Part shown: positions 3,450 through 15,366 of the stretch, in pieces
How the letters are laid out: each line of letters opens with the position of its first letter
Numbering within the stretch: the stretch's first letter is position 1
UHGV virus genome: UHGV-0088497
Direction: 5' to 3' (one strand)
From: a virus
DNA length: 27,542 nucleotides
Position numbers and translations under genes: made by a program
The notes under the pieces: generated by a model
Database searches by the model: none
Told to the model about the DNA's origin: nothing
Seen by the model: the letters and a program-made list of their open reading frames with translations, nothing else

Positions 3450-4001
3450 GTGGGTAACGAACCTATTTGGAAAGTCGAACGTCAGCCAGCCTGGCTGGTG
3501 GCGGCGATAAAAAAAACGATCACCGATCTTCCTGGTGGTTATGCCGAGGCGGCGGAATGGTTGGGCGTGACAGAGAACGCATTGTTCAACCGCCTTCGTG
3601 TTGACGGCGACCAAATCTTCCCGCTGGGCTGGGCAATGGTTTTACAACGTGCTGGTGGTTCAACTCATATTGCTGATGCCGTTGCGCGCCATTCTCAGGG
3701 CGTATTTGTACCGCTGGCAGATGTCGATGATCTGGATAACGCCGATATCAACCAGCGCCTGATGGAGTCCATCGAATGGATAGGCCGTCATTCGAATTTT
3801 GTACGTAAAGCCACGGCTGATGGGGTAATTGACGCAGATGAGCGTGCTCAGATTGAGGAAAACAGCTATCAGGTTATCGCGAAGTTCCAGGAGCACGTAA
3901 CGCTTCTTTATCGAGTTTTTTGTGTCGCTGAAAAGAGTGACGCCCGCGAGTGTGCAGCTCCGGGCGCCTTGGCGAACAACTCTTCGAGTATGGAGAAATA
4001 A
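3450..4001 (+). CDS. cII-like regulatory protein (Phage_CP76-type, 183 aa)
   Basis: It occupies the position after cro. An HTH-like stretch (GGYAEAAEWLGVTENALFNRLR) resembles the CP76/CII family as I remember it. GTG start. Confidence 0.55.
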   Translation: MGNEPIWKVERQPAWLVAAIKKTITDLPGGYAEAAEWLGVTENALFNRLRVDGDQIFPLGWAMVLQRAGGSTHIADAVARHSQGVFVPLADVDDLDNADINQRLMESIEWIGRHSNFVRKATADGVIDADERAQIEENSYQVIAKFQEHVTLLYRVFCVAEKSDARECAAPGALANNSSSMEK

Positions 4002-4173
4002 TCCGCATGAGCAGTTTAACGGCTTTTAACCGTCTACCGCAACTCAGGATAATCCCGGTTTCGGGTACTCCGTTGTTTCGGTATGAACGCAGATTATCAA
4101 CCCGCTGGGTTCCGTGTAACCACAGTAGGGCGGTTTCAATTGTGGGGGTCTACAACCGGAGGGCAAAACGCCT

Positions 4174-4353
4174 GTGCGCGAACTTAACCGAAGGTTCAAA
4201 GACCACCGTGGAGTGCCAGTCCGTGTTATCCGCTGGGAGCCAGAAACACAGCGCGTTATCTATCTGCGTGATGGCTACCCGCACGAATGCTTCAGCCCAC
4301 TTGAGCATTTCAGGCAAAAATTCAGGGAGATAACGGACGATCATGAGCACTAA
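4174..4353 (+). CDS. Hypothetical protein (59 aa), missing from the ORF track
   Basis: Hand translation gives (V)AELNRRFKDHRGVPVRVIRWEPETQRVIYLRDGYPHECFSPLEHFRQKFREITDDHEH. GTG 4174 lies about 10 nt after GGAGGG. The stop overlaps the start of the O-like gene. It looks more protein-like than the overlapping 127-aa and antisense 66-aa track ORFs. Confidence 0.4.
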   Translation: MRELNRRFKDHRGVPVRVIRWEPETQRVIYLRDGYPHECFSPLEHFRQKFREITDDHEH

Positions 4354-5209
4354 ATTAACCGGCTACGTATGGGATGGTTGCGCGGCGTCGGGCATGAAGT
4401 TGTCTAGTGTCGCGATCATGGCTCGACTCGCTGATTTCAGCAGTGATGAGGGCGTATGCTGGCCGTCAATTGAAACTATTGCTCGCCAGCTTGGCGCAGG
4501 CCCGAGCACTATCAGAACGGCAATCGCAAAGCTTGAAAAAGATGGCTGGCTCACGCGTACACAGCGCCGTAATGGTAACCGTAATGCTTCGAACGTGTAC
4601 CGCCTGAATGTGGCGAAACTTCAGGCTGCCGCATTTTCTCAACTGTCAGATTCTGACACATCAAAATCTGACGCATCAAAATTTGACACCTCAAAAACTG
4701 ACCCGTCGAAATCCGGCAAAAACGGCGGTTTTGACCCGTCAGAATCTGGCGGGGATCCGTCAGTAAAATCAAAACAAGATCCACAAGTAACTTTAAAACC
4801 CTCTTGTCCGGTTGCGGCGCAACCCGACCCTGAGGTTGTGATTACTGATCAGGCCAGACAGGTTTTGTCTTACCTGAACCAGACAACTGGTTCACGCTAC
4901 CAGGTATGCAGCACGTCGCTGGAGAACATTCGCGCCCGTCTGCGGGAACAGTTCACTGTTGATGATCTGTGCCTTGTGGTGGATTACAAAAACGCTGATT
5001 GGCGTGATAGCGAGCAGGCTCAATACCTCCGCCCGGCAACTCTGTTTATTCCAAAAAACTTCCCCGGTTACCTGCAAAGCGCGACCAAATGGTCTGCCGC
5101 TGGGCGACCTGAACGCGTTAACGGTAAATGGGCGACTAACTCAGCCAGCCGCGCAAACTTCCAAAATGTTGACTATTCACTGCCAGAAAATTCGGGGTTC
5201 CGCTCTTGA
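4343..5209 (+). CDS. Replication initiator, lambda-O-like (N-terminal wHTH plus conserved phage C-terminal domain)
   Basis: N-terminal HTH (WPSIETIARQLGAGPSTIRTAIAKLEKDGWL). Internal iteron array. The C-terminal block (QVLSYLNQTTGSRY...DDLCLVVDYK...YLRPATLF) resembles the phage conserved C-terminal replication domain. Confidence 0.8.
   Translation: MSTKLTGYVWDGCAASGMKLSSVAIMARLADFSSDEGVCWPSIETIARQLGAGPSTIRTAIAKLEKDGWLTRTQRRNGNRNASNVYRLNVAKLQAAAFSQLSDSDTSKSDASKFDTSKTDPSKSGKNGGFDPSESGGDPSVKSKQDPQVTLKPSCPVAAQPDPEVVITDQARQVLSYLNQTTGSRYQVCSTSLENIRARLREQFTVDDLCLVVDYKNADWRDSEQAQYLRPATLFIPKNFPGYLQSATKWSAAGRPERVNGKWATNSASRANFQNVDYSLPENSGFRS
4652..4760 (+). repeat. Iteron array (candidate ori) inside the O-like gene
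   Basis: Four tandem 15-bp units: TCTGACACATCAAAA, TCTGACGCATCAAAA, TTTGACACCTCAAAA, ACTGACCCGTCGAAA. After a 19-bp gap comes TTTGACCCGTCAGAA and a degenerate copy. The array encodes the SK-rich linker SDTSKSDASKFDTSKTDPSKS. Confidence 0.65.
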
Positions 5210-6525
5210 TGCCAAATAAATATTGCCAGGCGCTGGCAGAACTGCGCAGTAAACCAGCTCACGAATTGAAAGAAGTTGGAGATCAGTGGAGGACACCTGA
5301 TCTGCTTTTCTGGGGGATCAACGCGTTATTTGGCCCATTAGTTCTGGACTTGTTTGCTGACGACGACAACGCGAAATGCCCGGCATGGTACACCGCCGAA
5401 GATAACGCGCTGACCCAGGACTGGTCTGAACGTCTGGCAAAACTGGGTGGTGCAGGTTATGGCAACCCACCGTATAGCCGTTCGCAGTACCACGAGAAAC
5501 AGGCGATCACTGGTATGACGCACATCATGAAGTACGCAGCAGCCCAGCGCGAGAAGGGCGGTCGCTATGTATTCCTGATAAAAGCCGCGCCAAGTGAAAC
5601 GTGGTGGCCGGAAGATGCCGATCACATTGTATTCATTCGCGGGCGCATTGGGTTCGATCTGCCTGTGTGGTTTGTACCTGCTGACGAAAAACAGAAGCCC
5701 ACCAGCGCGTTTTTTGCCGGTGCCATAGCTGTATTCGATAAGTCATGGCGTGGTGAGCGGTTCAGCTATATCAACCGTACCGAACTGGAGGCAAAAGGGC
5801 GGGCGTTTATGACTTTGGCGCAATTTGCTGCCAGCAAGTCTCAACCTGCAACTGCCACACCATCTGTAGCTGACAAGCCAGAAGCAGAGTTGCCACTTAC
5901 CCAGAAAGATATTTTTGATATCAGCGGTGTCGAGGCGTGGGCATGCGTTAGAGCTGCGTTCGGCGATAAAGAAGAATACACATTTAGTGAATCGAAGTTT
6001 GGGCATACCTGGGCGGCGGATTCTGTCGAAGCACCGGAATTCACTCAGGTATCACCATTAACGATCGACAAAGCGAAGCTGCTTATTCGTGAGAGTATTT
6101 TGTTCGGTGTGGATGAGTGGCTGTTGTCGATTGAATTCGATGACGCTGCTGCGCGCCTGGATATGTCGGAACGTATTCGTACTGTTGCCCTTGAAGCATC
6201 TGGTGAATATGGCATGAACAGTACTGATTTCATTGCAGCTATGGGAAGCCTGGATGTTTCCAGTTGGTCCAATATTCGCCAGATCCGCATGCACATCCGT
6301 GAGAAAACTAAACCAGTATCGGATCCGCTTCCCGAGTCCCGTATCTGGCCGCTGGAGGTTGGAATTGTATTCGACCAGGTAGACGGCGCTGACATGCTGG
6401 ATGAATCACAGCAGAACAAGCTGAAAGCCAACATCAATCAACTCTGGCTGGAACGAACGGCCACCAGCGAAATCATTACTGCTGCTTCTGAACTTGTTCG
6501 CAATATGCGGGGAGAGGCCGCGTGA
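5209..6525 (+). CDS. Phage Dam-type N6-adenine DNA methyltransferase fused to an uncharacterised C-terminal domain of about 220 aa
   Basis: The N-terminal third has QWRTPDLLF...LDLFADDDNAKCPAWYT...GYGNPPYS (NPPY catalytic motif), typical of the phage Dam family. I recognise no domain in residues about 215-438. ATG 5209 overlaps the upstream TGA. Confidence 0.8.
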   Translation: MPNKYCQALAELRSKPAHELKEVGDQWRTPDLLFWGINALFGPLVLDLFADDDNAKCPAWYTAEDNALTQDWSERLAKLGGAGYGNPPYSRSQYHEKQAITGMTHIMKYAAAQREKGGRYVFLIKAAPSETWWPEDADHIVFIRGRIGFDLPVWFVPADEKQKPTSAFFAGAIAVFDKSWRGERFSYINRTELEAKGRAFMTLAQFAASKSQPATATPSVADKPEAELPLTQKDIFDISGVEAWACVRAAFGDKEEYTFSESKFGHTWAADSVEAPEFTQVSPLTIDKAKLLIRESILFGVDEWLLSIEFDDAAARLDMSERIRTVALEASGEYGMNSTDFIAAMGSLDVSSWSNIRQIRMHIREKTKPVSDPLPESRIWPLEVGIVFDQVDGADMLDESQQNKLKANINQLWLERTATSEIITAASELVRNMRGEAA

Positions 6526-6968: not shown

Positions 6969-7608
6969 TATTGCGGATCTGGTTCAGAGTAAACACAGTG
7001 ACGTGAAACGCTCGGCTGAGCGTCTTGTTGCTGCGGGAATTTTAACCGCGCCATTGGCGCAGTTCGATTTTGAGCATAACGGTAATGTGTACCAGGAGTA
7101 TCGTTTTAACAAACGCGACTCTCTGGTGATTGTTGCCAGATTATCACCTGAATTTACCGCCGCGGTCGTCGATCGCTGGCAGGAACTGGAAGAAGGACAG
7201 AGTGTCAGTGTTCCCCGCTCATTACCGGAAGCGCTTCGCCTGGCTGCTGATTTAGCCGAGCAGAAAGAGCAACTGACGATCCAGCTGGCAGCCGCGGCGC
7301 CAAAAGTGGAGTTTGTTGATCGTTATTGCTCTGCAAAAGGCTCCATGTCATTCCGGCAGGTAGCCAAATTGCTTAACGCAAAAGAAACTGAGTTTCGTCT
7401 GTTCCTTATTGAACGCAATATCCTGTATCGCCTCGGCGGCACACTTACCCCCATGGCGCAGCACATTTCCGCGGGAAGATTTGAAGTTAAGACGGGAACA
7501 TCGAGCACATCCAATCACGCATTCAGCCAGACGCGTTTCACTGCCAAGGGAGTACGCTGGATTGGTGGTTTGTGGGCTGAACATATTGCAGGGGGGCAGG
7601 CGGCGTGA
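6922..7608 (+). CDS. Rha-family regulator / KilAC-domain antirepressor
   Basis: Start ATG 6922 has GGAG 7 nt upstream. The N-terminus is Rha-like (SSRDIADLVQSKHSDVKRSAERL). The C-terminus is KilAC/ANT-like (VEFVDRY...FRQVAKLL...). Confidence 0.7.
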   Translation: MSQLIVNGVVTMSSRDIADLVQSKHSDVKRSAERLVAAGILTAPLAQFDFEHNGNVYQEYRFNKRDSLVIVARLSPEFTAAVVDRWQELEEGQSVSVPRSLPEALRLAADLAEQKEQLTIQLAAAAPKVEFVDRYCSAKGSMSFRQVAKLLNAKETEFRLFLIERNILYRLGGTLTPMAQHISAGRFEVKTGTSSTSNHAFSQTRFTAKGVRWIGGLWAEHIAGGQAA

Positions 7609-8600
7609 GGGCTTTGTTAACTCCTGAAGTCGCCCATCGCATGGGGATTGTGTTGTTTCGTCCCGGCGCGGAACTGATGCACCTCTTTATGCGTGGTCGC
7701 GTTTTGCTCGAGCCTGAACCAGAAGAAATGGCGTCATTCAGTACAGGAGCTGTTCCCGCCGCCATTCAGCCGCTGGCTGATGATCCGGTAATGCGGCAGG
7801 TCTTCGAGAATGATCGGGTTATTCAGCGTGCCGGTGGGCTTCCTTCCCTTGAGCAATGGTTGAGTACCCGGTTTGAATGCCAGTGGCCACATTCATCGTG
7901 GCACGATAAGAACTTCACAATAATGCGGCACCCACCAGGAAGTATTCACCTGTGCTGGCATTGCGATCACACTTTGTCGGGGCAACATACCGAACAGCTT
8001 GCAGGTATAGCGGCAGGAAACCTGGTATCCTGGATTCTGGAAGTCATTCGGCGTGATTCTGGTTTTCCCGAGTCGCATATCCTGACGCTTCCGGAACTGT
8101 GCTGGTGGATGGTCAGAAACGACCTGGCTGATGTTATTCCGGAAAGCGTTGCGCACAAGGGGCTACGCCTTCCGGATGAGAAGATCCGCTCGGTCATGAG
8201 GGAAAGCGATATTGTACCTTCCGTTTCTGCAACCAGCCTCGTGCAGGAGAAGGCGAAGAAGATCATCACGCTCTCTGTTGATCCGGAGTCTCCGGAATCT
8301 TTCATGCTCAGGCCAAAGCGACGCCGCTGGATAAATGAGACTTACACCCGCTGGGTAAAAACACAACCCTGTGAGTGTTGCCGACGGCCAGCAGATGATC
8401 CGCACCATATCGTAGGGCACGGTATGGGTGGTACAGCAACAAAAGCCCATGACCTCTTCGTGATCCCTCTGTGCAGAGAGTGCCACGACGAGTTACACGC
8501 CGATGTACCGGCATTCGAGCAGAAGCATGGTACGCAGCTTGAGCTGCTACTGCGTTTTATGGATCGGGCGCTGGCGATCGGTGTAATTGCGAAAGCTTAA
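7605..8600 (+). CDS. DUF968/Ref-like HNH-type protein with a long unknown N-terminal region (331 aa)
   Basis: The C-terminal block CECCRRPADDPHHIVGHGMGGTATKAHDLFVIPLCRECHDELH matches the DUF968 / P1 Ref-like metal-binding motif as I remember it. GTG 7605 overlaps the upstream stop. Confidence 0.6.
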   Translation: MRALLTPEVAHRMGIVLFRPGAELMHLFMRGRVLLEPEPEEMASFSTGAVPAAIQPLADDPVMRQVFENDRVIQRAGGLPSLEQWLSTRFECQWPHSSWHDKNFTIMRHPPGSIHLCWHCDHTLSGQHTEQLAGIAAGNLVSWILEVIRRDSGFPESHILTLPELCWWMVRNDLADVIPESVAHKGLRLPDEKIRSVMRESDIVPSVSATSLVQEKAKKIITLSVDPESPESFMLRPKRRRWINETYTRWVKTQPCECCRRPADDPHHIVGHGMGGTATKAHDLFVIPLCRECHDELHADVPAFEQKHGTQLELLLRFMDRALAIGVIAKA

Positions 8601-8617
8601 GTGTATGGAGAAAAGTG

Positions 8618-8983
8618 ATGCGTGATATTCAAATGTTACTTGAAAGATGGGGCGGGTGGGCTGCCAGTGATAGTTCTGGCGTGGACTATTCTCCTATAGC
8701 TGCAGGATTTAAGGGGCTGTTGCCGCAAACAGGTAGATCCCGACCGTCATGTACTGACGATGATGCGCTGATCATCGAAGGTTGCCTGGCGCGATTGAAA
8801 AGCCGGAAACCATATGAGCATTCACTGCTTGTAGCTCACTATCTGTATGGAATATCCAAGAGGAAGATCGCAAAAGTGCGTAAAAAAGATGAGAAATTGA
8901 TACGGATCGAGATACAGATGGCTGAGGGGTTTATTGATGGCTGCCTTTCAATGTTGGATGTAAGGCTTGATATGGATGAATAA
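8618..8983 (+). CDS. Late antiterminator Q (QuuD / phage-21 Q family)
   Basis: MRDIQMLLERWGGWAA...IAAGFKGLL...DDDALIIEGCLARLK closely recalls E. coli DLP12 QuuD. ATG 8618 has GGAG 7 nt upstream. Confidence 0.85.
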   Translation: MRDIQMLLERWGGWAASDSSGVDYSPIAAGFKGLLPQTGRSRPSCTDDDALIIEGCLARLKSRKPYEHSLLVAHYLYGISKRKIAKVRKKDEKLIRIEIQMAEGFIDGCLSMLDVRLDMDE

Positions 8984-8992
8984 CTAATTGTT

Positions 8993-9023
8993 AACATTAT
9001 GCCCCGTGTAGGGGCCTAATGTT
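8993..9023. terminator. 13-bp-stem hairpin between convergent Q and the 4-TM gene (no U-tract)
   Basis: AACATTATGCCCC gtgta GGGGCCTAATGTT with one mismatch. It overlaps the stop codon of the minus-strand gene. Confidence 0.45.
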
Positions 9024-9471
9024 ACAAGTGAGGGAAAATTCTACGCAGCACTAACCAACACCTACCAAATGTGCAAAGTGAAAGGAGCAGCGAAGACAAT
9101 CCTAACAGGAGAAATAAAAAATCAATTGGTTGAGCAAAGACCTTAACATCCTCTGGTAAGAACATAGCGATCAGTGGAAACAAGCAGGCCAAAATCAGCG
9201 TCAACCCTGTTGATAGCAAGCGATTTATCAATGTTGGTAATATATTATTCCTTTTGAGGGCGTTAATGGCCCCATCTTTGTCACTATCTGCGCTACTGAA
9301 TATAGATATAGCGGCGAGAACAAACCCAAAAAGAATTCCTGAAATTGTCGAAAGCACACCTGCTGTAGTTAACACATCAGCATGTTTCATAGGCTTAAAC
9401 AGTTTTGTCGCTGCATAAGTAATCAGAACTAAGAGGACCACTTTCCAAAAAAGAGTTAGAAATTCTCTCAT
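9022..9471 (-). CDS. 4-TM membrane protein (149 aa), RexB-like candidate effector
   Basis: GGGAGG RBS 5 nt upstream. Four hydrophobic helices at about residues 5-25, 34-60, 81-105 and 116-142. Size and topology match lambda RexB (144 aa). LSTISGILFGFVLAAISIF resembles RexB LSSYAGTMIAILIAALTFL as I remember it (unverified). Confidence 0.6.
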   Translation of the reverse strand: MREFLTLFWKVVLLVLITYAATKLFKPMKHADVLTTAGVLSTISGILFGFVLAAISIFSSADSDKDGAINALKRNNILPTLINRLLSTGLTLILACLFPLIAMFLPEDVKVFAQPIDFLFLLLGLSSLLLSLCTFGRCWLVLRRIFPHL

Positions 9472-9489
9472 TTTGTCCTCCCTTTTGCG

Positions 9490-10437
9490 TTACTGGTTTT
9501 TTTTTGCAAGCTCATACTGTGCAAGGTAATTTGCATTATCAATTTTAGCAGATATCATCGCCGTCCTGATATCAGAATCAGAAGGATAGCCGCTTTTTAC
9601 TACTATAGTTTTCGAGCCTATGAGCACTTGATCAAGTAGGCTTTTTGGCGCTGTATCTGATGGTTCTGTTACATCAATTTTCTTGATGTTTAGCCCGCCA
9701 GAGCCTTTGGGGAATAGTTCAAGCAGTTCTTTAATAGCATCAGTAACTGATGATTTAAGATAGTTGAAGCCTGCTCTTTTGGGACGAATGCGACCGCGCA
9801 TGTTAAGTCTCAGGTGTGAACCGCCCATACCAACCACCATATCAATGATGTCATTAGTAAGGTCATTCTTAATCTGATAATTAGCTTTATTGAAATTTCT
9901 TGGCGCTGCGACAGTGAGGTCAAAACTGCGAAGGATGTTCCCATCTTCAAGAAGTTCCTTCATGCTCTCGTGCTTCCAGATAGCCTCGAATGTAACATTT
10001 TTCATTTGTGTCTTGTTGTACAGAATGAAAGATAAATCATTCACTTTGGGGCCTAAATGGTTGAGAGTCATTGCTAGTAAATCTGTTTCAAAGTAGTAAA
10101 TAAAATATGTCCGTTCTACTACTGAATCTTTATCGCTAAGCGGTATCGTTCGCTCGCTTCCTGTGGTGCCATCCTCGATAAAAGGTAAGAGACAATCACG
10201 CCTCCACGAGACATACCCAAAATAACTCTGCTGCTTATCATCCTTTTCAAGAATGACAAGTTTTAAACCGCGGTTTTGGGTTTCTGCTGTCACCACTAAA
10301 GGGAATGTAACCGGAGTCGTGTTTGTCATTTGCTCGAATGCAAGTTTCGCTGTAGACAGACCGTCTTTTTTACTTCCATTTCCAGTGAAAAAGCCAACTC
10401 TTACGCGACGAGTTTTCTTCTTATCTTCTGTAGTCAT
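9490..10437 (-). CDS. Soluble 315-aa protein, RexA-like candidate sensor
   Basis: ATG 10437; the track start at 10443 is a TTG. It lies 18 bp upstream of the 4-TM gene on the same strand and is AT-rich. The block FETDLLAMTLNHLGPKVNDLSFIL resembles lambda RexA VEGDTIGFARTVFGPTTSDLTDFL as I remember it (unverified). Confidence 0.55.
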   Translation of the reverse strand: MTTEDKKKTRRVRVGFFTGNGSKKDGLSTAKLAFEQMTNTTPVTFPLVVTAETQNRGLKLVILEKDDKQQSYFGYVSWRRDCLLPFIEDGTTGSERTIPLSDKDSVVERTYFIYYFETDLLAMTLNHLGPKVNDLSFILYNKTQMKNVTFEAIWKHESMKELLEDGNILRSFDLTVAAPRNFNKANYQIKNDLTNDIIDMVVGMGGSHLRLNMRGRIRPKRAGFNYLKSSVTDAIKELLELFPKGSGGLNIKKIDVTEPSDTAPKSLLDQVLIGSKTIVVKSGYPSDSDIRTAMISAKIDNANYLAQYELAKKNQ

Positions 10438-10675
10438 TATCAATCCGATGAGAATTTCTGATAAACGGACGAAAAATACTATAAATAATTGAGAAGATCA
10501 TTAGCGCGGTCCGCAAAAAGTGATGTAACGTGTTAAGAGTGGTTACTTGGTCACATTGCTTAATCATCAAATTCAGCTTCTGAGTTTTGTTTTAACGATG
10601 CTTGATTGTGCGACTTATCTCTCTGAAACTTATCTTCTTTTCCTTGACTATGAATTTTCTATCTAAGGAGGTTCT

Positions 10676-10924
10676 ATGTTGGGAGTGTGTTCTTGTGGTG
10701 GTAGGCTTGATGAGTCGCAGTATTCCACCGATAGCCTAGGTAATACGTTCAAATCTTGTCCAAGATGTACGCAGATTTCCGGGCATCACGTTTTCTATCT
10801 TATTGAGGAGTTTGGCGAGAGGGATATGGGGGATGGCAGAGTTATAGTGCAACCATATTGCCCATCGTGCAGAAACTACCAAGAAAGATCATTAGTTCCT
10901 GCGTTTGAGTGCAGTGGTTCATGA
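10676..10924 (+). CDS. Zinc-ribbon protein (82 aa), function unknown
   Basis: Strong RBS (AAGGAGG, 5 nt, ATG). Motifs CSCGG, CPRC and CPSC. Followed by a canonical terminator. Divergent from the RexAB-like operon. Confidence 0.65.
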   Translation: MLGVCSCGGRLDESQYSTDSLGNTFKSCPRCTQISGHHVFYLIEEFGERDMGDGRVIVQPYCPSCRNYQERSLVPAFECSGS

Positions 10925-10943
10925 TCACAACATTCAATATAAG

Positions 10944-10965
10944 ACCACCTTCGGGTGGTTTTTTT
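10944..10965 (+). terminator. Rho-independent terminator
   Basis: ACCACC ttcg GGTGGT followed by TTTTTT. Confidence 0.8.
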
Positions 10966-11088
10966 ATGACAAATCAGACATGCGCGGCGCGTAAAGGCGC
11001 TGGTGGTCGCAGAATGGAATTCTTCTCTTGCTGGTGAAGCCAACCAGAGTTATCTGTATGTCACTCTAATTGTTTAAGGGTAAAAGGC

Positions 11089-11280
11089 ATGCTAAATCAG
11101 CAAGATATGACAGAAACCGCGAAGGCTGTTTTCAATGAGTTAAGCGATAAACCAGCATCGGTTGGGGAGATTGCACAGAATACCCACCTCAGCCGCGAAC
11201 GTTGCCAACTCATACTTACGCAATTGGTGATGGCGGGATTATCTGACTACCAGTTCGGATGTTATAAGCGTTTCCAGTGA
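11089..11280 (+). CDS. Small winged-helix protein (63 aa), same family as the 567..821 product
   Basis: VFNELSDKPASVGEIAQNTHLSRERCQLILTQLVMAGL aligns by eye with VFEYLQAHPNTTSGEIAKGMNKKTPAVAGALSQLYGTG of the 567..821 product. Confidence 0.55.
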   Translation: MLNQQDMTETAKAVFNELSDKPASVGEIAQNTHLSRERCQLILTQLVMAGLSDYQFGCYKRFQ

Positions 11281-11410
11281 TATGTTTTTTTGCACTATGT
11301 GAACTGCATCAACAGTTTAGTTTTTTCTTATTTCTGGCTTAAAAATAGTTTTTGACATAACTCTTTAGCTATTAAGATTTTTTACCTTATCAACTTGATA
11401 GAGGTGAAAA

Positions 11411-11743
11411 ATGAGTGTTGAAAATTATGAAATTGCTTTAAATGATGTTGACCCAACTAACCTGGGTGCGGTTAAAGACTTATTGGAGACACACTCCCAT
11501 CTTTTCAATGACTATTTTCTAGCCGGTTATGGCGGTGATGCCCGATACTCCGTTATTGATGGCTCATTTGAAGTTATCGGTATTGGAGATGGTTTTTTTG
11601 AGTATGAGGTTGGGATTGATTTTTTTGCTGGTTGCTCAGATATGAACGATACCCACGAAGACTCTGGGATACTTGAATATGAAGTTAGAGATGGAAGTAT
11701 TCACATTGAAGTGGATGAAGCTGTCTGGAGAGTAGACAATTAA
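11411..11743 (+). CDS. Highly acidic 110-aa protein, function unknown (possible DNA mimic or anti-defence factor)
   Basis: GAGGTG RBS. By my count it has 14 Asp and 11 Glu against 1 Lys and 3 Arg. No recognisable domain. Confidence 0.6.
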   Translation: MSVENYEIALNDVDPTNLGAVKDLLETHSHLFNDYFLAGYGGDARYSVIDGSFEVIGIGDGFFEYEVGIDFFAGCSDMNDTHEDSGILEYEVRDGSIHIEVDEAVWRVDN

Positions 11744-11933
11744 TTCCCGCTTACTGATCCTAATCGCGCCGCTATAAATGGTTTGGCGGCTTTCTGCTGT
11801 GGAAATGGGCGGCTGGTGGGTGTTAGCGCACCCAGTCAGCCATCAGCTCATGCTTTCAGGTCACAAGCTAACCAAGGCCCACTGCTTTAGCGCAAAAGCA
11901 ACGTGAGCCTATCAGAGTTACGCTTACTGATCT

Positions 11934-12986
11934 ATGAAAAATACTGTAAAAATAAACAGGGTTGAGTTAATCAACGCTGATAGCCTGCATTACGTCGCCA
12001 CCCTCCCGGATAACTCTATTGATCTGATTGTTACGGATCCTCCGTACTTCAAAGTGAAGCCTAACGGCTGGGACAACCAATGGAAGGGGGACGAGGACTA
12101 CTTACGCTGGCTTGATAGCTGCCTGGCTGAGTATGCTCGCGTTCTTAAACCTGCTGGCAGCATCTACCTGTTTTGCGGTCACCGACTGGCCTCAGACATA
12201 GAGATTATGATGCGTACCCGGTTCAAAGTTTTGAATCACATCATTTGGGCAAAACCATCGGGCCGCTGGAATGGATGTAACAAAGAAAGCCTGCGTGCGT
12301 ACTTTCCATCTACGGAACGGATTTTGTTTGCTGAGCACTATCTTGGGCCGTACACAGGTAAAGAGGATGTTTACGAAAGGAAAAGCACAGAGCTAAAGCA
12401 GCACATTATGACGCCGCTGATTGATTACTTCCGTAATGCCCGTGAATCACTGGGAGTCAGCTCGAAAGAAATAGCTGAGGCAACCGGAAAGAAAAACATG
12501 GCGTCACACTGGTTTGGTGCAAGCCAATGGCAACTACCAAATGAAGTGGACTATAGAAAATTGCAGGAACTGTTCACGCGGATCGCTATCGATAAGCACA
12601 TTCAGCAGAAGCTTGAACATCCTCACCACCAGCTGGTAGCCACCTATCAGTCATTAAACCGCAAGTATTCAGAATTGCTGGAGGAATACAAAACCCTCCG
12701 GCGCTGCTTCTCTGTTTCCGCTTTTGTTCCGTATACCGACGTATGGACGCATAAGCCTGTTCAGTTTTATCCAGGCAAACATCCATGCGAAAAACCTGCC
12801 GACATGCTGAAGCAGATCATTAGCGCCAGCAGCAGACCGGGGGATATCGTTGCCGATTTCTTTATGGGCTCTGGTTCAACTGTGAAAGCTGCAATAGAAC
12901 TTGGTCGTCGGGCGATCGGCGTAGAACTGGAAACCGACAGGTTTATTCAGACCACCGAAGAGGTGGAAAAACTCAACAAAACATAA
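11934..12986 (+). CDS. Orphan beta-class N6-adenine/N4-cytosine DNA methyltransferase
   Basis: Motif IV DPPY (LIVTDPPYF) is near the N-terminus and motif I FxGxG (ADFFMGSGST) near the C-terminus. No restriction endonuclease partner is evident. Confidence 0.85.
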   Translation: MKNTVKINRVELINADSLHYVATLPDNSIDLIVTDPPYFKVKPNGWDNQWKGDEDYLRWLDSCLAEYARVLKPAGSIYLFCGHRLASDIEIMMRTRFKVLNHIIWAKPSGRWNGCNKESLRAYFPSTERILFAEHYLGPYTGKEDVYERKSTELKQHIMTPLIDYFRNARESLGVSSKEIAEATGKKNMASHWFGASQWQLPNEVDYRKLQELFTRIAIDKHIQQKLEHPHHQLVATYQSLNRKYSELLEEYKTLRRCFSVSAFVPYTDVWTHKPVQFYPGKHPCEKPADMLKQIISASSRPGDIVADFFMGSGSTVKAAIELGRRAIGVELETDRFIQTTEEVEKLNKT

Positions 12987-13129: not shown

Positions 13130-13408
13130 ATGACCAGAATGAGCACCATTTACAGCAGACTTTCATATGGATCAGGAACCACGCTTGCCGGCTGCGGTGT
13201 ATCAGCGAAGGCATATGCCGAAACAGCCAAAACAGCAAAAGAGGTGTCCTGGATGTTGGCCGACAGAATTGCAGGGTTAAGCCTGAGCGACTGGGCAATT
13301 ATTGTCGGTATCGCATGCACAGTTATCACCTGTGCAGTGAACTGGTATTTCCGCTGGAAAGAACGGGAGGATCGGCGCAATGGCTATGCCACCAAAGCTG
13401 AAGAATAA
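13130..13408 (+). CDS. Class II holin, phage-21 S (pinholin)-like, with an MTRM dual-start motif
   Basis: GGAGGTGAGG RBS. LSLSDWAIIVGIACTVITCAVNWYFRWKEREDRR parallels the S21 C-terminal half. Met1 and Met4 are separated by Arg. Confidence 0.75.
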   Translation: MTRMSTIYSRLSYGSGTTLAGCGVSAKAYAETAKTAKEVSWMLADRIAGLSLSDWAIIVGIACTVITCAVNWYFRWKEREDRRNGYATKAEE

Positions 13409-15262: not shown

Positions 15263-15366
15263 TAGTTTTTCAGATCTAAGGTCATCATCATCATTTGCGC
15301 AGGTTATTGATCTCATTGGAGGCGATTTCGTGCAGATGTCGAATCGTTTAAAAAGTGTTCACCATC

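Follow-up and report, generated by a model that had tools for sequence, protein, structure and literature searches.

A conserved, highly acidic protein encoded in a cargo slot between Q and the lysis genes of lambda-like prophages: a possible decoy for nucleic-acid-binding proteins

In a stretch of viral DNA of 27,542 nucleotides (UHGV virus genome UHGV-0088497; hereafter the window, meaning the whole stretch that was analyzed), one short open reading frame encodes an extremely acidic protein of 110 residues. The question raised by this locus is what such a protein does in a prophage and whether the genes beside it are part of the answer. A preliminary description of the DNA had placed the gene between a small wHTH gene and an orphan methyltransferase gene, and had proposed a possible DNA-mimic factor against restriction or another defence, in an arrangement recalling an Aca-like regulator. 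The arrangement itself is present in the window. The reading built upon it needed considerable revision.

The acidic gene and its family

The window represents a lambda-like prophage, and its type is that of a lambda-like cos prophage of Citrobacter/Salmonella. The genes around the acidic gene are as follows:

7605-8600: DUF968/NinG-like gene, upstream of Q
8615-8983, + strand: Q late-gene antiterminator (PF06530, E 1.7e-53), upstream edge of the cargo slot
9022-10443, reverse strand: two cargo genes
11089-11280, + strand: wHTH protein of 63 aa (phrog_331; DprA_WH, E 8e-5, only just above the Pfam cut-off), outside the cassette described below
11411-11743, + strand: acidic-protein coding sequence (PHROG 13663), from the ORF list, translation, profile match, dN/dS and AF2 model
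11934-12986, + strand: orphan N6/N4 DNA methyltransferase (PF01555, E 3.5e-44; PADLOC MTase_II PDLC03265, 471 bits)
13130-13408, + strand: holin, the first lysis gene, closing the cargo slot on the downstream side; identity to the holins of loci L001 and L014 is 93-100%

Behind the reverse-strand cargo genes come a zinc-ribbon ORF of 82 aa and a strong terminator hairpin at about 10944-10966. Beside the methyltransferase, no ORF with a nuclease match was found, and the next gene downstream is the holin. The lysis genes run in the order holin, lysozyme, Rz, and a lambda-type terminase begins at 15355; the product of the L001 holin gene carries Phage_holin_2_3.

The composition count for the acidic protein gave 14 D, 11 E, 1 K, 3 R and 4 H among 110 aa, with a computed pI of 4.05 and a charge of -21.1 at pH 7. 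The earlier figures (14 D, 11 E, four basic residues, net charge about -21) were reproduced exactly upon recounting. Twenty-five acidic residues against four basic ones represent a high carboxylate density of the kind that marks DNA mimics. The window has 86 ORFs of 60 aa or more that start with ATG; their mean net charge per residue is +0.04 (sd 0.09), and this protein has the lowest value, -0.19. It has neither a signal peptide nor a membrane segment.

Among 5.8 billion clustered proteins, 15 clusters were found with 45-93% identity to the acidic protein, and a profile search of 1.8 billion representative proteins returned 46 family representatives. An identical copy of the protein is recorded in Citrobacter (multispecies) and in Salmonella enterica. 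Klebsiella, Raoultella, Leclercia, E. coli and Shigella all have relatives of it, and further ones come from Franconibacter, Atlantibacter, Cronobacter and Providencia. Other alleles of the gene lie on hundreds of Klebsiella contigs. The E. coli allele WP_000606308.1 (UTI89) is 33% identical to the protein of the window. Of 5426 complete E. coli genomes, 131 carry the E. coli-type subfamily, among them UTI89, S88 and APEC O1. Every source annotates these proteins as hypothetical.

Pairwise dN/dS values of the acidic gene range from 0.09 to 0.27, with dS up to 1.2, which indicates purifying selection. All small family members are negatively charged, with net charges from -2 to -23, and the lowest magnitudes belong to truncated fragments; the strong acidity remarked upon earlier is thus a conserved property of the family. 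A divergent member from Providencia (P0060) has a net charge of only -4 and is without the GC.D.N motif. Purifying selection, about 46 representatives and the acidity kept in the small members establish that the ORF is a genuine, conserved accessory gene. The giant TPS-domain exoproteins P0033, P0034, P0046 and P0051, which were also hit by the family profile, were rejected as artefacts; their scores are sums of many weak matches, of 3-17 bits each, to beta-helix repeats of about 81 aa.

Database comparison gave the family a number and little else. PHROG 13663 is matched over its full length: residues 3-108 of the protein align with positions 4-110 of the 111-position profile (E 4.1e-31, 108.7 bits). 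This membership names the family and explains nothing about function, because the PHROG is without functional annotation. Pfam (at E <= 0.1), NCBIfam and PADLOC returned no match for the protein, Pfam over all 45 aligned family members returned no recurring family, and nothing among PDB sequence profiles matched. The family was not found by tblastn with two of its members against 50,697 phage records (INPHARED). A profile scan of genome contigs with the alignment of close relatives alone gave no match, and the two broader family alignments were too diverse to serve for locus scans. Literature queries by accession, peptide string and topic found no paper on the family. It is therefore an uncharacterised family, for which a PHROG was found and a Pfam family, a named homologue or a paper was not.

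A cassette between Q and the lysis genes

In a global alignment with the prophage of E. coli Nissle (L012), window positions 11079-11280 correspond to L012 3146-3347 at 92% identity and positions 11784-12050 correspond to L012 3348-3614 at 97% identity, with no L012 sequence between the two blocks. Since the wHTH and methyltransferase genes are joined directly in the Nissle prophage, positions 11281-11783 are an insertion. It begins right behind the wHTH stop codon and contains the following elements:

11281-11783, + strand: 503-bp cassette (promoter-like block, gene, 3' hairpin), an insertion relative to the E. coli Nissle prophage
11330-11361, + strand: conserved non-coding block ATTTCTGGCTTAAAAATAGTTTTTGACATAAC, an A-tract followed by a -35-like TTGACA (11352-11357)
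11373-11378, + strand: -10-like hexamer TAAGAT, 15 nt past TTGACA, as read from the sequence
11401-11406, + strand: Shine-Dalgarno sequence GAGGTG, 4 nt before the ATG; relatives keep GAGGTG or AGGTGG
11766-11799, + strand: weak terminator-like hairpin, a GCCGC...GCGGC stem followed by TTTCTGCTG, from the RNA fold of 11744-11933

The GC content of the cassette is 0.35-0.42, against 0.51 for the whole window; the longer segment 9000-11750 has 0.35-0.46, against about 0.54 on either side.

The GAGGTG ribosome-binding site and the upstream TTGACA, both pointed out in the preliminary description, were found at 11401-11406 and 11352-11357. In an alignment of nine loci, whose acidic proteins are only 45-95% identical, TGACATAA is invariant together with parts of the A/T-rich stretch directly upstream. 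The core of the block is 63-91% identical where synonymous dS is 0.6-1.2, and its conservation thus exceeds that of synonymous sites. In L058 and L059, whose proteins are 41-42% identical, the block also precedes the gene, there with TTGGCA. At the -10-like position the relatives have TAATAT (L016), TATGCT (L009 and others) or TAGCAT (L059), and the spacer is 15 nt in all of these as well as in the window. A strict promoter scan, which accepts spacers of 16-18 nt, called no promoter here in three of the four loci scanned (the window, L009 and L046). The upstream block may act as a promoter, and its 15-nt spacer would be suboptimal for this role.

At the 3' end, the leader of the methyltransferase gene (11744-11933) folds only slightly better than shuffled sequences (z -1.8). 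Equivalent GCCGCC/GGCGGC hairpins occur in L001, L014 and L016, and similar hairpins 3' of the gene are visible in L006 and L018-L032. Where the acidic gene has no other cargo beside it, the place of the hairpin is taken by a strong intrinsic terminator (L009, 8359-8380) or, in L046, by a terminator-like hairpin that was reported on the minus strand (4341-4377). Rfam had no match anywhere in the window.

About 45 lambdoid loci were recovered, and in all of them the acidic gene is located between the Q antiterminator and the lysis genes, with protein identities down to 25%. In most lineages the gene stands alone between Q/tR' and the holin, immediately upstream of the holin, as in these two examples:

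L009: pR' 7833-7862, tR' 7896-7917, acidic gene 8001-8333, intrinsic terminator 8359-8380, holin
UTI89 (L046): Q, tR' 3921-3942, acidic gene 4001-4336, terminator-like hairpin 4341-4377, holin

The cassette has the look of a moron: a promoter-like block, a gene and a terminator behind tR' and before the lysis genes. Presence and absence between close genomes is seen in the 503-bp insertion, with flanks of 92-97% identity. Deviating GC (0.39 against 0.51) and a terminator are both present if the L009 and L046 hairpins are considered, while the window itself has only the weak hairpin. The lambdoid morons and other cargo carried between Q and the lysis genes, such as the stx genes, the orphan methylase module and cspB/cspF/ynfU of Qin, occupy the identical slot and share the presence/absence pattern, the deviating GC, a promoter-like element and a terminator. 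The acidic protein differs in being unrelated to any characterised moron product, and its cassette also occurs outside lambdoid phages. A moron encoding a small acidic accessory protein is nonetheless a familiar kind of thing. The position of a promoter-like block and its gene between two terminators makes a natural insulated transcription unit inside a lethal operon.

Such a position may also be read as that of a late-operon helper, a protein that modulates lysis timing (by binding the holin at its basic cytoplasmic tail), Q or the methyltransferase; in a variant, the protein would be a shield against methylation-dependent (type IV) restriction once the phage methylase has been turned on. In most lineages the holin gene directly follows the acidic gene, Q always lies upstream, and in several lineages the methylase gene comes after the acidic gene, all of which suits a helper. 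However, the acidic gene is found with Q proteins of three unrelated families (PF06530, PF03589 and DUF1133-type) and with several holin types, and a partnership with either was rejected, as the acidic gene co-varies with neither. The lack of co-variation across no fewer than three unrelated Q families and several holin families, a terminator between the acidic gene and the holin, and homologues that function outside any phage, in integrons and in the Cronobacter chromosome, make a helper role highly improbable.

Neighbouring genes and the predicted fold

The adjacent wHTH and methyltransferase genes had been taken as meaningful partners. The wHTH protein is 50-57% identical to counterparts in E. 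coli and Providencia prophages, where its gene precedes a methyltransferase gene whose product is 63-80% identical to that of the window. This wHTH-methyltransferase pair occurs without the acidic gene in the E. coli prophages L012, L047 and L048, and conversely the acidic gene is without any wHTH gene in most of the lineages examined. In L064 the wHTH and methyltransferase genes come first and the acidic gene follows behind the methylase. By these comparisons the wHTH gene belongs with the methyltransferase and not with the acidic gene. The Aca-like regulator was rejected, for Acr-Aca pairs are recognised by an HTH gene that travels with the inhibitor gene and such a gene was not found; at one distant locus, L043, a DUF6471 HTH gene is located directly upstream of the acidic gene.

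The acidic gene adjoins the same methyltransferase family in four gene orders:

wHTH, acidic gene, methyltransferase: window, L016
acidic gene, methyltransferase: L050
acidic gene, nuclease, methyltransferase remnant: L055
wHTH, methyltransferase, acidic gene: L064

Three prophages that have a Q gene and leader closely related to those of the window and no acidic gene were inspected. Two of them carry the methyltransferase module in the same slot, and the third carries cspF/cspB/ynfU. Because the module is frequent in the slot even where the acidic gene is missing, co-location is expected without any functional link, and an enrichment of methyltransferase adjacency was dropped from consideration on account of these two of three prophages. 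The adjacency is not a feature of the family; the module is simply common cargo of the same slot, and its adjacency is given no weight as a sign of functional coupling.

These results bear directly on the proposal that the acidic protein is an Ocr/ArdA-type DNA mimic against type I restriction or BREX, sharing an island with an orphan methyltransferase and controlled by the wHTH protein. Like Ocr (T7 gp0.3) and ArdA, the protein is small, cytoplasmic, extremely acidic and borne on a mobile element with its own expression signals, and a net charge of -21 on 110 aa is within the range of known mimics; Ocr, for one, is described as a very acidic monomer of 116 aa (PMC3439906). By this analogy, a role as a decoy for DNA-binding enzymes is plausible. 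According to the classical view, lambda DNA is ejected last-in-first-out, and a gene with a putative promoter of its own about 3.8 kb from the cos end would enter among the first DNA. Adjacency to the same methyltransferase family in all four gene orders also agrees with the proposal. Against it, PMC10287942 challenges the last-in-first-out rule itself in vitro. The wHTH gene stays with the methyltransferase when the acidic gene is absent and is missing where the acidic gene stands alone, and the methyltransferase module fills the slot in two of three gene-free prophages with a related Q. The acidic protein belongs to neither the ocr nor the ArdA family of Pfam, and no similarity in sequence or fold was found to either protein or to any other solved mimic. 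Ocr is an all-helical dimer and ArdA has an elongated fold of three domains; the acidic protein, predicted to be beta-rich, resembles neither. An Ocr-type mimic with this set of partners is very unlikely.

With a 45-sequence alignment, the AF2 model of the acidic protein reached pLDDT 89.2 and pTM 0.76, with the topology b1-a1-a2-b2-b3-b4-b5. An earlier model from 16 sequences had the identical topology at pLDDT 77. The predicted fold, a small alpha+beta roll, is thus of high confidence. Acidic and hydrophobic residues alternate on the predicted strands b2-b5 (positions 64/66/68/70, 89/91/93 and 100/102/103), so that carboxylates probably cover one face of the sheet without a break.

Foldseek against viral models found nothing at E <= 1e-3, and the nearest folds in the structure search were NTF2-like. 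VirB8-like domains, SnoaL-like enzymes and NTF2-fold immunity proteins are among the closest known of these NTF2-like or cystatin-like alpha+beta rolls. As modelled, the fold is without a close solved relative. The preliminary description had named a match to a structural or unrelated family as part of an outcome that would speak against an anti-defence role; the predicted fold matched no structural or housekeeping family and is therefore compatible with a decoy or anti-defence protein. Ugi, SAUGI, AcrIIA4 and AcrIF2 are strongly acidic proteins of about 85-115 aa, with about two helices on an antiparallel sheet, that act as stoichiometric inhibitors on their own. The acidic protein as modelled would be like them in size, in acidity and in having helices packed on a sheet.

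The best-conserved positions of the family differ from the acidic bulk. The most conserved residues are F32, C75 and W106 (at least 96%), followed by D43, R45, Y46, G74 and D77, and the family motifs are GD.RY, GC.D.N and LDE..W. Since the best-conserved residues are not the acidic bulk, a pocket or an active site has to be considered: the protein might be a small NTF2-like cone that binds a small molecule, for example as a sponge for an immune signalling nucleotide, or a small enzyme using the near-invariant Cys75. The conservation pattern and the NTF2-like structural neighbours both agree with a pocket protein, which is nevertheless judged quite unlikely.

Relatives outside lambdoid phages and possible roles

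A subfamily with an ELP..W C-terminus, 25-30% identical to the acidic protein, occurs in several non-lambdoid settings. In a Rhodocyclaceae MAG and in Luteimonas (loci L034 and L035), members are single-gene cassettes of chromosomal integron arrays, each bordered by attC-like CCTAAC...GTTAGGC repeats, of which there are at least 16 and 13. The cassettes neighbouring them encode Imm33-like, DUF7832, AbiJ_NTD4 and DUF4145 proteins. Other members of the subfamily have HicAB, a resolvase/integrase island, or a C5-methylase with a DUF6471 HTH gene as neighbours. In Cronobacter and Franconibacter, a separate subfamily is fixed in the chromosome as a lone gene behind ydbH-ynbE-ydbL, and the Franconibacter copy lies at the edge of a variable island with AbiH, HNH and a metallo-beta-lactamase-fold gene (Apyc1-family match). 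The common denominator is a single small gene in cargo sites, functioning without an encoded partner. Cargo slots of this sort are known collectors of conflict genes: integron cassettes include phage-defence genes, according to 10.1101/2024.07.02.601719 and PMC12614218, and anti-defence genes cluster on mobile elements (PMC7648647).

Information of this kind may suggest cargo that protects the lysogen. The protein would then be an orphan immunity protein against an incoming nuclease toxin (colicin, CDI or T6SS), or a single-protein superinfection exclusion factor sequestering a DNA-binding protein of another phage. In L054 and L055 the acidic gene is located directly upstream of a lipoprotein-type DNA/RNA non-specific endonuclease gene (PF01223, E 2.6e-47). 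Secreted nucleases of the PF01223 type have small acidic cytoplasmic inhibitors, as in the pair NucA-NuiA, and the endonuclease directly downstream in these two loci counts in favour of protection. The layout of promoter-like block, gene and terminator, with terminators on both sides, suits expression in a lysogen beside lethal lysis genes. Homologues sit in integrons beside Imm33-like, DUF7832 and AbiJ_NTD4 cassettes, and the report of phage-defence genes among integron cassettes in 10.1101/2024.07.02.601719 points the same way, as do the fixed Cronobacter/Franconibacter copies at the edge of a variable island with AbiH and HNH.

Protection of the lysogen nevertheless meets several difficulties. 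No adjacent cognate toxin was found in about 45 loci, and the nuclease neighbour is confined to one lineage. No Imm family of Pfam and no PADLOC model matched, and the Imm33-like genes are only separate integron cassettes. Neither of the usual marks of polymorphic-toxin immunity, an adjacent toxin or Imm membership, was seen in the window or in most loci. Moreover, strict retention between Q and the lysis genes suggests that late, Q-driven expression matters, for which immunity has no need. A lysogen-protective role is judged unlikely.

The reading tentatively put forward is that of a stand-alone acidic decoy, produced from an autonomous cassette, that blocks a nucleic-acid-binding protein. 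A moron cassette inserted in the leader of the late operon would have its own sigma-70 promoter and be weakly but constitutively transcribed from it, in the lysogen as well as on an incoming genome. Late in lytic growth, Q-antiterminated read-through would strongly boost its expression. The protein would act alone, as a stoichiometric polyanionic decoy on the basic nucleic-acid-binding surface of its target, and the likeliest class of target would be a nuclease-type or DNA-binding weapon.

Composition, predicted fold and context may point to this mechanism, although with a good deal of reserve. The conserved acidity and the cargo-slot and integron settings are taken, with the same caution, as support for a decoy. 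Several observations were counted against it. The best-conserved residues would suit a specific pocket or an active site no less than a diffuse charge mimic, and the closest folds are NTF2-like, a typical scaffold of small-molecule-binding proteins or enzymes. The family is absent from INPHARED, and P0060 has a charge of only -4.

Whether such a decoy would serve the phage or its host is a separate matter. A counter-defence role on the side of the phage, which is slightly preferred over protection of the lysogen, is itself on the unlikely side; the slight lean derives from the strict retention in the leader of the late operon and from early entry under the last-in-first-out view. That Cronobacter has stable copies in its chromosome speaks against a role confined to the phage. 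The more general proposition, an undescribed family of stand-alone, beta-sheet-faced polyanionic decoys directed against a nucleic-acid-binding immune effector or toxin in at least four genomic settings, is doubtful.

If the protein truly inhibits a defence nuclease or a toxin, a new fold would be added to the few protein mimics of nucleic acids, and a function would be given to a gene found in clinically important Enterobacteriaceae. If it has no function in conflict, it is an ordinary prophage gene without an assigned role.

Four settings of the family were observed: the leader of the lambdoid late operon, a tail-sheath site of myoviruses, integron cassettes and the edge of a chromosomal island in Cronobacter. 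The second is represented by the myovirus prophages L033 and L037, in which the member adjoins the tail sheath gene; in L033 its neighbours on the other side are tail-fibre-like genes. The locus resembles the Z/fun position of P2. Its identification with the published P2 hotspot was rejected, as that hotspot is the cos-proximal old/tin locus (PMC9122126).

Variable cargo behind Q

Behind Q, the late-gene antiterminator, the following features are located:

9022-10443, minus strand: two cargo genes, directly after Q
10676-10966: an 82-aa ORF, then a strong hairpin terminator

The reverse-strand pair has a GC content of about 0.40. Its 317-aa product belongs to phrog_7651 (E 5e-135) and matches PDC-M67A weakly in PADLOC (E 0.003), with nothing matched in Pfam or PDB; the other product is a 149-aa multi-pass membrane protein of phrog_8552. 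The closest relatives (L001-L005) carry other genes at this position, with products of 140, 69 and 289 aa; thus, 9022-10443 is a second variable cargo site. The two genes possibly form a two-gene defence system.

The 82-aa product contains two CxxC pairs, belongs to phrog_7682 and matches YnfU weakly. In the E. coli Qin prophage (L049), ynfU likewise occupies the Q-to-lysis slot, the cargo region between Q and the holin gene. The terminator 3' of this ORF reads ACCACCTTCGGGTGGTTTTTTT.

The wHTH-methylase module and its leader

Many prophages of Enterobacteriaceae, among them that of E. coli Nissle 1917 (L012), carry in their late-operon leader a conserved two-gene module that encodes a wHTH protein (63-67 aa, phrog_331) and an N6/N4 methyltransferase (350 aa). 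The module was also found in loci L047, L048 and L064. In the window its members lie at 11089-11280 and 11934-12986, and the phrog_331 protein may be a controller of the methylase. Between the acidic gene and the methylase are two elements:

11748-11759 and 11921-11932: 12-nt direct repeat CGCTTACTGATC
11806-11838: GC-rich 12-bp hairpin in the methylase leader, arms GGCTGGTGGGTG...CACCCAGTCAGCC

The hairpin shows 97% conservation in Nissle. The complete methylase leader folds only marginally better than its shuffles (z -1.8), and no Rfam match was found in it. The first copy of the repeat lies 5 nt past the stop of the acidic gene and the second lies directly 5' of the methylase ATG. A target-site duplication is ruled out, since the copies are away from the insertion junctions; the repeat may instead be a trace of the recombination that brought in the cassette carrying the acidic gene.

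The acidic gene in related loci

In L054 (6531-7400) and L055 (6469-7802), a DNA/RNA non-specific endonuclease (PF01223) with a lipoprotein signal is encoded in the Q-to-lysis slot, immediately 3' of the homologue of the acidic gene. Downstream of the endonuclease, L055 retains a remnant of the methylase C-terminus (residues 262-348). The ORF that contains this remnant matches, over its first ~15 residues, the beginning of the L054 holin-like ORF.

Homologues were also found outside phages. Two chromosomal integron cassette arrays, from a Rhodocyclaceae MAG (L034, 1-7915) and Luteimonas composti (L035, 1-6508), contain at least 16 and at least 13 attC-like repeats, respectively, with one small gene between each; their cassettes include Imm33-like, DUF7832, AbiJ_NTD4 and DUF4145 genes and a distant acidic-protein homologue. 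In Cronobacter and Franconibacter (L060-L063), the homologue is chromosomal and non-phage, directly downstream of ydbH-ynbE-ydbL; that of Franconibacter adjoins a variable island with AbiH, HNH and a metallo-beta-lactamase-fold gene matching the Apyc1 family.

In L006, L009 and L018-L032, about 100 nt separate the terminator of the acidic gene from the holin ATG. This leader holds CCCCTC...GAGGGGG, two stretches that could pair and thereby occlude the holin Shine-Dalgarno. Even where the holin body differs, the leader is kept, and it may be a translational control element.

The L009 prophage carries, together with the acidic gene, a gene for a 624-aa Avs-like NACHT/NB-ARC protein (3575-5449), situated in the early region upstream of NinG and Q.
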